The notes beneath the pieces are model-generated. The model did not search any database, had not been told where the DNA came from, and worked only from the letters and a program-made list of their open reading frames with translations. Made by a program: the position numbers and the translations under genes. Positions 2,374-4,714 of a stretch of 4,714 bases of DNA are shown piece after piece. Numbering within the stretch: the stretch's first letter is position 1; each line of letters begins with the position of its first letter. Origin of the DNA: a virus (lineage: Duplodnaviria; Heunggongvirae; Uroviricota; Caudoviricetes). The stretch spans positions 1-4,714 of IMG/VR virus record IMGVR_UViG_2778261569_000015; one strand, written 5' to 3'.

Positions 2374-2431
2374 AAAAAGGGCGGCAGAGCAGCCACGGAG
2401 TAAAACTGATACCGCCAAACGTCACCAGAAA
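2374..2431 (-). ncRNA. dicF: DicF small regulatory RNA
   Basis: Minus strand reads TTTCTGGTGACGTTTGGCGGTATCAGTTTTACTCCGTGGCTGCTCTGCCGCCCTTTTT, nearly identical to the recalled E. coli DicF sequence, including the 3' GC-rich stem and U-run. It lies between the upstream ORFs and dicB as in Qin. Confidence 0.8.
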
Positions 2432-3376: not shown

Positions 3377-3529
3377 TCAGTCAGTGTTTCTGGCTAACCA
3401 GCGACGCGCGCCAGCTTCAGTTTTAAACGTTTTGCTTCTGGTATACGTCATCGCGGTAAACGTGCCGTCCAGGTTGGGGAATACTCCGTATACCAGAGAT
3501 TCGTTGTTGCCAAGATTGAGCGTATCCAT
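3377..3529 (-). CDS. ydfA: YdfA-like small protein (DUF1391-type, 50 aa)
   Basis: Internal start of the 82-aa track ORF: ATG 3529-3527 with SD GAGGT 4 nt upstream. Product MDTLNLGNNESLVYGVFPNLDGTFTAMTYTRSKTFKTEAGARRWLARNTD matches my recollection of Qin YdfA and is the first gene after the repressor, as in Qin. Confidence 0.65.
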   Translation of the reverse strand: MDTLNLGNNESLVYGVFPNLDGTFTAMTYTRSKTFKTEAGARRWLARNTD

Positions 3530-3600
3530 GTTGACCTCATTTGCCCTTAACGCCGGGGGGGCGGAACTAAGACCTGTCGCACCGTTGTGCTTTGATGGGA

Positions 3601-3640
3601 TATATTGTTCTCTTAAGATGAACATATGTCAACATTGTGA
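3601..3640 (-). promoter_or_regulatory. pL-like promoter with operator palindrome, driving the ydfA-dicF-dicB operon
   Basis: Minus strand has TTGACA (3632-3627), a 17-nt spacer, then AACAAT (3609-3604). An inverted repeat TGTTC-N9-GAACA (3606-3624) overlaps the spacer and -10. The segment is about 80% identical to the pR-like element at 4126-4165 in inverted orientation. Confidence 0.5.
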
Positions 3641-3653
3641 ATGCGCAAGAGGC

Positions 3654-3675
3654 AAAAAAAACCGCCTTCCGGCGG
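3654..3675 (-). terminator. Rho-independent terminator of the repressor gene (bidirectional in form)
   Basis: Hairpin CCGCC-TTCC-GGCGG (3662-3675). On the minus strand it is followed by an 8-nt U-run (complement of A-run 3654-3661), 22 nt downstream of the repressor stop. The plus strand has a T-rich tract after the stem (tattgttttgt). Confidence 0.7.
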
Positions 3676-3697
3676 TATTGTTTTGTAAAATAAAGAA

Positions 3698-4087
3698 TTA
3701 TTTTTGTCGCGTTATTGGGTCAACGTATTCTGAGTAAAATTCGGTCAGTTTTTGAAGGCGCATTTGAAAAGCTGCCAGCATATTTCTACGCTCTACAGGT
3801 GGCAGGTTTCTGTAAACATCAAGCAGGGCTTTCTCATCATCATCAAGCGCCTCTCTGTTTGTATCTTCTTTTCCTGTCAGTAGCCAGGAAAGGGAAACAT
3901 TTGTCGCTTCTGCAATTTTGGCTGCGGAATCTTTACTGATTGTCCCTCTTTTTTTCCAGGCGTTGACTGATGAGCGTCCTACACCAGCGATGCGCGCTAA
4001 ATCTGAACCGCTTAAATGATGCTGTTGCGAGATCGTATCTAACCTTTCTGCCAGCGGGGTGTCGTATTGCTTTTTTCTCATGTCCAT
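3698..4087 (-). CDS. cI/DicA-like phage repressor, XRE-family HTH (129 aa)
   Basis: HTH segment LSGSDLARIAGVGRSSVNAWKK near the N-terminus, with a C-terminal helical region (ALLDVYRNLPPVERRNMLAAFQMRLQKL) arranged like DicA. Divergent from a Cro-like gene and followed by its own terminator. No SD; a -10 hexamer abuts the ATG. Confidence 0.85.
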   Translation of the reverse strand: MDMRKKQYDTPLAERLDTISQQHHLSGSDLARIAGVGRSSVNAWKKRGTISKDSAAKIAEATNVSLSWLLTGKEDTNREALDDDEKALLDVYRNLPPVERRNMLAAFQMRLQKLTEFYSEYVDPITRQK

Positions 4088-4189
4088 TTAGCAATTATAA
4101 CCGTTCAGTGAACACTAACAATTCCTCGTAGTGTTGACTTATGTTCTCTTTAAGTGAACAATGTTGTGGCTGATTGAATTGGAGGTTGT
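4088..4189. promoter_or_regulatory. Divergent immunity promoter/operator region (pRM-like leftward, pR-like rightward)
   Basis: Minus-strand TATAAT at 4099-4094 ends 6 nt before the repressor ATG. Plus-strand TTGACT (4134-4139), 17-nt spacer, AACAAT (4157-4162). Operator-like palindromes TGTTC-N9-GAACA (4142-4160) and GTTCagtGAAC (4103-4113). SD GGAGG 4181-4185. Confidence 0.6.
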
Positions 4190-4465
4190 ATGACAGCATT
4201 GGACAAGGCAATAAAGATTGCTGGTGGTATTCGTCCGCTAGGGCGTGCAATAGGGGCTTGGCCGTCTCAAATACACAAATGGGCAAATGAATACAATGGT
4301 CGAGTGCCGACAGGGGAGCGGGTTCGTCAAATTTATATTGCAACTGGGGTGACTCCTCATGAATTGCGACCAGATTTATATCCGAATCCAACCGACGGGT
4401 TGCCTGCTGGAGATAAGGCTAACACACAAAATACACCGGAGTTGATTCATGAAAATCAAGCATGA
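4190..4465 (+). CDS. Cro-like HTH regulator (DicC/YdaS family, 91 aa)
   Basis: SD GGAGG 4 nt upstream of ATG 4190. N-terminal AIKIAGGIRPLGRAIGAWPSQIHKW and ...GVTPHELRPDLY fit the Cro/YdaS pattern. It is divergent from the repressor. Confidence 0.8.
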   Translation: MTALDKAIKIAGGIRPLGRAIGAWPSQIHKWANEYNGRVPTGERVRQIYIATGVTPHELRPDLYPNPTDGLPAGDKANTQNTPELIHENQA

Positions 4466-4714
4466 ACACATCCGCATGGCGATGAATGCCTGGGCGCGTC
4501 CTGATGGCGAAAAAGTTCCAGCAGCTGGAATAACCCAGGCTTATTTTGAGTTGGGTATGACGTTTCCTGAACTGTATGACGACAGCCATCCGGAAGCCCT
4601 GGCTCGCAATACCCAGAAAATTTTCCGCTGGGTAGAGAAAGACACCCCTGATGCTGTTGAAAAAATGCAGGCTCTGTTACCGGCGATCGAAAAGGCGATG
4701 CCGCCTTTGCTGGT
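4449..4714 (+). CDS. YdaT-like protein in the cII position, N-terminal 88 codons (no stop within window)
   Basis: ATG 4449 with GGAG 7 nt upstream; overlaps the cro-like gene's last 17 nt. Translation MKIKHEHIRMAMNAWARPDGEKVPAAGITQAYFELGMTFPELYDDSHPEALARNTQKIFRWVEKDTPDAVEKMQALLPAIEKAMPPLL. The MKIKHEHI start and position downstream of cro resemble the Rac YdaT family as I recall it. Confidence 0.65.
   Translation, partial: MKIKHEHIRMAMNAWARPDGEKVPAAGITQAYFELGMTFPELYDDSHPEALARNTQKIFRWVEKDTPDAVEKMQALLPAIEKAMPPLL

Follow-up and report, generated by a model that had tools for sequence, protein, structure and literature searches.

The cI gene of phage lambda, expressed from its maintenance promoter PRM, is the established case of a repressor made from a leaderless mRNA, and in this mRNA the 5'-terminal AUG is the preferred start of translation. 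Work by Krishnan and colleagues in 2010 is said to have found that even 1-2 extra 5' nucleotides lower leaderless translation. The prophages Rac and CP-933P share a three-gene immunity architecture, in which a repressor gene is divergent from ydaS and ydaT and the three proteins were shown to be analogues of CI, Cro and CII (PMC8630535). Jurenas and colleagues (2021, PMC8630535) demonstrated leaderless expression of PaaR2, the repressor of CP-933P in E. coli O157:H7, with 5' RACE, mass spectrometry and N-terminal sequencing, which gave MQKKE. We rebuilt the 5' sequence of paaR2 from the primers and then retrieved the locus from the genome, where PRM933P reads GATAAT, 6 nt, ATG. For RacR, the repressor of Rac in E. 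coli K-12, primer extension and mutagenesis of the -10 hexamer established that PracR3, the strongest racR promoter, is leaderless (Wisniewska et al. 2022, PMC9638921). Leaderless translation is summarised in PMC10491246 and PMC8630535; of the papers found in literature searches on leaderless transcripts and transcription starts in O157, only those on CP-933P and Rac proved relevant.

We compared with these systems a stretch of viral DNA of 4714 nt, which we call the window and which always means the whole stretch. It matches, at 99.9-100% identity, a lambdoid prophage that some E. coli O157:H7 and other STEC genomes carry at ompW; this prophage resembles Rac and CP-933P, and the window is its immunity region. 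The repressor module is present in 81 of 5426 complete E. coli genomes, and the modules of O157:H7 FRIK944, FRIK2455 and E32511 are 100% identical to that of the window, strain 611 being another carrier of the identical module; the O157 strains Sakai and EDL933 do not appear among 63 of the 81 genome records with the module. From left to right, the window contains the 5' part of the exonuclease VIII gene, DUF1482, dicB, the DicF sRNA gene (upstream of dicB, which lies at about 2016-2204 on the minus strand, an arrangement as in the Qin prophage) and small early-left ORFs, including DUF1391, which precede the immunity region. The latter consists of three genes, a 129-aa HTH repressor on the minus strand, a divergent YdaS-family gene and a YdaT-family gene:

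2379-2430, minus strand: DicF sRNA gene (Rfam RF00039, 75 bits against a gathering score of 48)
3698-4087, minus strand: repressor coding sequence, 129 aa (MDMRKK...), CI-type HTH, PF07022 (Phage_CI_repr)
4181-4185, plus strand: Shine-Dalgarno sequence GGAGG of ydaS, 4 nt from its ATG, an internal contrast to the repressor gene, which has none
4190-4465, plus strand: ydaS, cro-like (PF15943, 39 bits against a cut-off of 30)
from 4449, plus strand: ydaT, cII-like (PF06254, 35.4 against a cut-off of 21; PHROG "CII-like transcriptional activator")

The window and CP-933P have the same order of repressor, ydaS and ydaT, and the 5' end of ydaT is identical to the CP-933P primers. When the two are aligned (CP-933P locus L021; window 4438-4714), ydaT and the operator of YdaT are near-identical and the similarity stops at about 4438, beyond which ydaS, the operators and the repressor are unrelated to those of CP-933P (whose inverted repeats have the consensus GTTTAGTAA). 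As the similarity ends at the YdaT operator, a recombination joint appears to lie exactly at this site, where a PRE-type promoter is also expected (see below). Moreover, paaR2 is the first of three genes in an operon, the other two being the toxin-antitoxin pair paaA2-parE2, whereas the repressor gene of the window stands alone and is followed by a terminator. In Rac, racR has two more promoters upstream of the leaderless one, while we found only one promoter-like site in the intergenic region of the window.

The HTH of the repressor protein matches PF07022 with 47.8 bits (cut-off 22), HTH_3 is also matched, and the protein matches PHROG families of transcriptional repressors or regulators. 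The profile search found HTH families only in its 129 aa and no S24 peptidase domain, which rules out the LexA/lambda-CI class of autocleaving S24 repressors; given a repressor without peptidase, induction of the prophage may proceed via an antirepressor. The C-terminal 45 aa (3698-3830, minus strand) carry a nearly invariant motif, LPPxERRNMLAAFQMRLxxL...DPxTRxK, which may form an oligomerisation or antirepressor-binding surface. A homology to PaaR2 was considered and rejected, as no pairwise alignment exists, and the marginal similarity to RacR (158 aa) is limited to a 28-residue match in the HTH (12/28 residues, pairwise E = 3e-4). By these comparisons the repressor is of a different family placed in the same slot, not homologous to PaaR2 and barely to RacR. 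This means that the experimental precedents, which come from non-homologous repressors, argue by analogy. Among the Gifsy and other well-studied phages we found no close homologue, the best phage match (59% identical) being in Klebsiella prophages; the idea that the Salmonella homologue might be a Gifsy repressor was dropped for the same reason, and a literature search on that homologue gave nothing. A sequence search of the PDB gave one weak match, to the N-terminal domain of 186 CI (2FJR), a protein of 189 aa with a different C-terminal oligomerisation domain. The 186 switch is built on face-to-face pR and pL promoters, and we know of no leaderless precedent for 186 CI.

The start region of the repressor gene can be described on the minus strand, which reads ...GGAA TTGTTA gtgttcactgaacggt TATAAT tgctaa ATG GAC ATG AGA AAA AAG..., by the following elements:

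4116-4121, minus strand: -35-like hexamer TTGTTA of the maintenance (PRM-like) promoter, with a 16-nt spacer to the -10
4094-4099, minus strand: -10 hexamer TATAAT, perfect consensus, from direct reading and a consensus scan
4088-4093, minus strand: 6-nt stretch tgcTAA between the -10 and the ATG, without Shine-Dalgarno sequence and with an in-frame stop TAA at 4090-4088
4085-4087, minus strand: first ATG, predicted start codon and predicted transcription start (A at 4087), from the geometry and the family-wide distance between -10 and ATG
4079-4081, minus strand: second in-frame ATG, the start in RefSeq/PGAP for most genomes (127 aa), probably not the main start
3654-3676, minus strand: intrinsic terminator ACCGCCGGAAGGCGGT followed by T7, predicted to end a monocistronic repressor transcript

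The original prediction had placed a perfect TATAAT 6 nt before the repressor ATG, and direct reading shows that its coordinates are exact; a consensus scan independently finds TTGTTA-16-TATAAT, with 10/12 matches. It had also noticed a poor -35, and we agree with this description, as TTGTTA has 4/6 matches and the spacer is suboptimal, but the promoter as a whole is closer to the consensus than lambda PRM (TAGATA/TAGATT). The absence of a Shine-Dalgarno sequence is borne out by the best anti-Shine-Dalgarno pairing of the 18 upstream nucleotides, -2.4 kcal/mol against -10.0 kcal/mol for ydaS. Because the in-frame TAA stands directly before the ATG, the reading frame cannot extend upstream. With the -10 hexamer at -12 to -7 and 6 nt behind it, the canonical +1 is the A of the ATG at 4087, and each of the three A residues at 4089-4087 could serve as +1. 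Transcription starting at or beside the AUG, as originally proposed, is thus supported by the geometry, by the conserved spacing of 6-7 nt described below and by the lack of an alternative start. From these sequence features we consider it very probable that the leader of the maintenance transcript is 0-2 nt long and, if so, rather likely that the ATG at 4087 is the start codon.

The mechanism that we propose is the following. RNA polymerase bound at TTGTTA-16-TATAAT would start on the A of the ATG at 4087, or no more than 1-2 nt away from it, and would produce a monocistronic mRNA of ~430 nt that has AUG at its 5' end and runs to the terminator at 3676-3654. From this mRNA the 129-aa repressor would be translated without any Shine-Dalgarno sequence by the leaderless route established for lambda cI, that is, by direct recognition of the 5' AUG helped by an A-rich, unstructured 5' coding region. 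The predicted mRNA starts with AUGGACAUGAGAAAAAAG; its first 60 nt fold weakly (-5.1 kcal/mol, z = +0.97 against shuffled sequences) and its first 8 nt are unpaired.

The likeness to lambda goes further than the absence of a Shine-Dalgarno sequence and an A-rich 5' coding region, which both repressor genes have. The lambda PRM reads TAGATT-taacgt-ATG, the same layout of -10, 6 nt and ATG as TATAAT-tgctaa-ATG here; in both cases ~100 bp of operator DNA separate the repressor gene from a divergent cro-type gene, the far side of the repressor gene is occupied by a PL/OL module, and a gene for a cII-type activator lies downstream of cro. However, the repressor of the window, with its 129 aa and no S24 domain, shows no recognisable homology with lambda CI except for the shared HTH class, its operators are of the form TGTTC-N9-GAACA, its -10 is perfect, and its predicted transcript is monocistronic with a terminator of its own and no rexAB.

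We gathered relatives of the repressor (31% to 82% identity) from contigs representing one genome per species and from metagenome and genome assemblies; their sources are Lelliottia, Raoultella, Erwinia, Phlomobacter, Sodalis, Chimaeribacter, Serratia, Xenorhabdus, Salmonella, Enterobacter, Cronobacter and one metagenome. Nearly all are divergent from genes of the ydaS/ydaT type, with about 101-107 nt from ATG to ATG. We then recorded every hexamer of the form TAnnnT with at least 4/6 matches to the consensus. Such a -10 ends 6 or 7 nt before the first ATG in 23/23 loci where the gene occupies the CI position, in at least 12 genera; these are 20 genome or metagenome loci, including the window, and three sequenced phages. 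In the 20 loci the hexamer mostly has 5-6/6 matches and the spacing is 6 nt in 16 and 7 nt in 4, each of the other offsets within 60 nt being used by at most 4 loci. All loci of the family have ATG as the start codon. The phages have TATTCT + 6 (SEN34), TACAAT + 6 (PHB10) and TACAAT + 7 (Kp4882-1). As controls we took from the same loci the other ORFs of at least 80 aa, read from their first ATG: such a hexamer is present at that offset in 1/103. The 60-nt upstream sequences of the 20 loci form 8 clusters at 70% identity. This means that the layout is not one inherited sequence, and the probability of its arising by chance is negligible even if only clusters are counted. Across the family the -35 hexamers are weak (3-5/6) and the -10 hexamers strong, the TTG of the -35 being kept in close relatives. 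The E. coli variants of the module (89-94% identical overall) tell the same at a shorter distance: from the -35 through ATGGAYATG, the block ATTGTTAGTGTTCACTGAACGGTTATAATTGC(T/C)AAATGGA(C/T)ATG is essentially invariant, and substitutions and an indel gather in the leader of ydaS and in the stretch that separates the two -35 hexamers.

The homologue of phage mEp237 (L033) was left out of the count, since it is not in the CI slot: gp38 is the second of the tandem HTH genes gp39-gp38. It is preceded by GATACT + 7 nt + ATG, and this GATACT, directly after the stop of the upstream gene, may be an internal leaderless promoter.

The surroundings of the promoter contain several further elements, on which its control, and a second way of supplying the repressor, may depend:

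3604-3632, minus strand: PL-like promoter TTGACA-17-AACAAT, from the scan, beyond the repressor terminator
3606-3624: OL operator TGTTCTCTTAAGATGAACA, a perfect 19-bp palindrome in the PL-like promoter
4103-4113: palindrome GTTCAGTGAAC in the PRM spacer, centred at about -21, candidate site for repression of PRM
4134-4162, plus strand: PR-like promoter TTGACT-17-AACAAT for ydaS/ydaT, from the scan, carrying an operator palindrome
4142-4160: OR operator TGTTCTCTTTAAGTGAACA, a perfect 19-bp palindrome TGTTC-N9-GAACA in the PR-like promoter
4442-4459: YdaT operator TTGATT-N6-AATCAA, perfect, at the ydaS/ydaT junction, 0.03 expected by chance
4455-4450 (-35) and 4433-4428 (-10), minus strand: candidate PRE-like promoter TTTTCA-16-TATTTT, its -35 inside the YdaT operator

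The whole promoter-operator module is duplicated and flanks the repressor gene in the form of a 31-nt inverted repeat (3604-3634 against 4132-4162, 84% complementary), and the two operators, about 530 bp apart, could be joined by looping. Because the PRM-like promoter is packed into the same stretch of about 100 bp as the divergent PR-like promoter of ydaS/ydaT and the operator palindromes, the repressor, the Cro-like YdaS or both could control it, via the palindrome at -21 and the OR operator centred at -64. It is plausible that the repressor or YdaS represses PRM at the palindrome at -21, and also plausible that PRM is activated via the OR site or the half-site at 4132-4139. The maintenance promoter is likewise plausibly an activated or autoregulated one, considering the weak -35 hexamers of the family and the conserved palindrome of the spacer. 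This palindrome, GTTCAGTGAAC, includes the half-site AGTGAACA which is common to the OR and OL operators, and it is conserved in Lelliottia and in the E. coli variants; its spacing, however, does not fit that of the 19-bp palindromes. Six relatives (L022, L025, L026, L011, L029 and L003) have TAGCC-N3/4-GGCTTA in the PRM spacer instead of GTTCAGTGAAC, 6-20 nt upstream of the -10. The HTH of relatives with this differing palindrome (AGCC-N3-GGCT at the same place) is near-identical to that of the repressor of the window: either specificity can be switched by a few residues, or it is the Cro-like protein to which these sites belong.

At the other end of ydaS, the perfect YdaT operator is a repeat of the type that YdaT binds (PMC9986795), and YdaT activates the PRE-type promoter PRE933P in CP-933P (PMC8630535). 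During establishment this prophage therefore probably makes a YdaT-dependent transcript which runs antisense to ydaS and has a leader of ~330 nt, and such a long-leader transcript from the PRE-like promoter would then also supply the repressor. It is compatible with a leaderless maintenance transcript. Since the two probably coexist, a 5' end mapped upstream of the gene would not by itself refute the leaderless transcript from PRM.

The arrangement at 4087 could be explained away by supposing that an AT-rich intergenic region happens to have TATAAT near an ATG. The hexamer is found once in the window (either strand) and the promoter scan gave 3 sites in 1.4 kb, against 1.9 in shuffles; because 1.88 occurrences of TATAAT are expected by chance in the window, the hexamer is unremarkable by itself, and it is its exact position which carries the information. 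This position recurs in every independent relative but in only 1% of the control ORFs, and diverged E. coli variants keep the block unchanged, so that a chance origin can be regarded as effectively refuted by these comparisons and deserves hardly any credence. It could also be that the repressor comes mainly from promoters further upstream, YdaT-activated and PRE-like or intergenic, by internal initiation independent of a Shine-Dalgarno sequence, TATAAT being part of an operator or fortuitous. The YdaT operator with its candidate promoter on the repressor strand and the activation of PRE933P both speak for this, and so do the three mapped promoters of racR (PMC9638921), which suggest that leadered transcripts may contribute here too. 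However, a promoter of the PRE type is silent without YdaT, and YdaT is repressed in the lysogen, so that maintenance needs PRM, and in Rac the leaderless promoter is the strongest and is essential for promoter strength (PMC9638921). An overlapping operator could be partly responsible for the conserved -10 beside the ATG, but operators alone do not explain a spacing of 6-7 nt: they vary with the immunity type, and TAnnnT persists. We consider it quite unlikely that upstream promoters are the main source.

There is finally the second in-frame ATG (4081-4079), absent from the original prediction. Transcription might well adjoin the gene and the true start be at 4081, behind a 6-nt leader AUGGAC. 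PGAP annotates this start in most genomes, and the homologues P0058, P0060 and P0062 begin with MKKK or MKKT, aligning with the second Met. Yet PGAP is not consistent, as it gives 127 aa in most genomes and itself picks the first ATG, for 129 aa, in KS-NP019 (WP_001380402.1 against WP_061336543.1). Neither ATG has a Shine-Dalgarno sequence, and a 6-nt leader would be too short to hold one. The MDM start is kept in E. coli, Lelliottia, Salmonella and Klebsiella, where the hexamer lies 6 nt before the first ATG, and P0054, a homologue that begins MNTKKK, lacks the second ATG. In the loci L026 and L027, whose proteins are two residues shorter (MKKK/MKKT), the -10 has shifted and is again 6-7 nt from their own ATG; what is conserved is a -10 next to the first ATG. 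As the -10 follows the first ATG across homologues, 4087 is favoured as the start and 4081 appears an unlikely one, and the RefSeq model of 127 aa probably lacks the first two codons.

With a leaderless maintenance transcript beginning at or next to 4087 as the preferred reading, the repressor of the window would be, by all sequence criteria, a further predicted case of the known arrangement of leaderless maintenance repressors, from a different family in the same slot. Our understanding of these switches is not changed by it and its novelty is modest, consisting of the family-wide layout and the corrected starts. It adds a whole repressor family with a conserved leaderless layout, present in E. 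coli O157, Salmonella, Klebsiella, Enterobacter, Cronobacter, Serratia, Erwinia, Xenorhabdus and others. It also suggests a rule for new prophages: a TAnnnT located 6-7 nt before the first ATG of a gene in the CI slot would point to both PRM and the true start. We may go one step further and propose, tentatively and with slightly less than even confidence, that leaderless expression has been selected for, and is nearly obligatory, in the maintenance repressor slot of immunity modules of the lambdoid and Rac types. The layout, with a -10 hexamer 6-7 nt from a 5'-terminal AUG, recurs in no fewer than four families that are unrelated or barely related (lambda CI, PaaR2, RacR and the family of the window), and within the latter family the spacing persists in at least 12 genera while its surroundings, including operator specificity, change. 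If the proposal is true, this points to a functional requirement, for which there are several candidates: translation by 70S ribosomes independent of a Shine-Dalgarno sequence and of initiation factors, which would keep the repressor made under stress; small translational bursts, which would stabilise bistability; or the fitting of two promoters and their operators into about 100 bp.

For annotation, the consequence would be a correction of gene starts, from the 127 aa of RefSeq to 129 aa; several database entries of the family are over-extended or frameshifted (P0043, 172 aa; P0057, 157 aa; P0064, 164 aa; P0075, 151 aa). On the other side of the repressor gene, the DUF1391 ORF (3377-3625, minus strand) could encode 82 aa from the ATG at 3625, and PGAP gives 50 aa (3377-3529). 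The short form is the more plausible one, because the longer form would begin inside the PL-like promoter and its operator.
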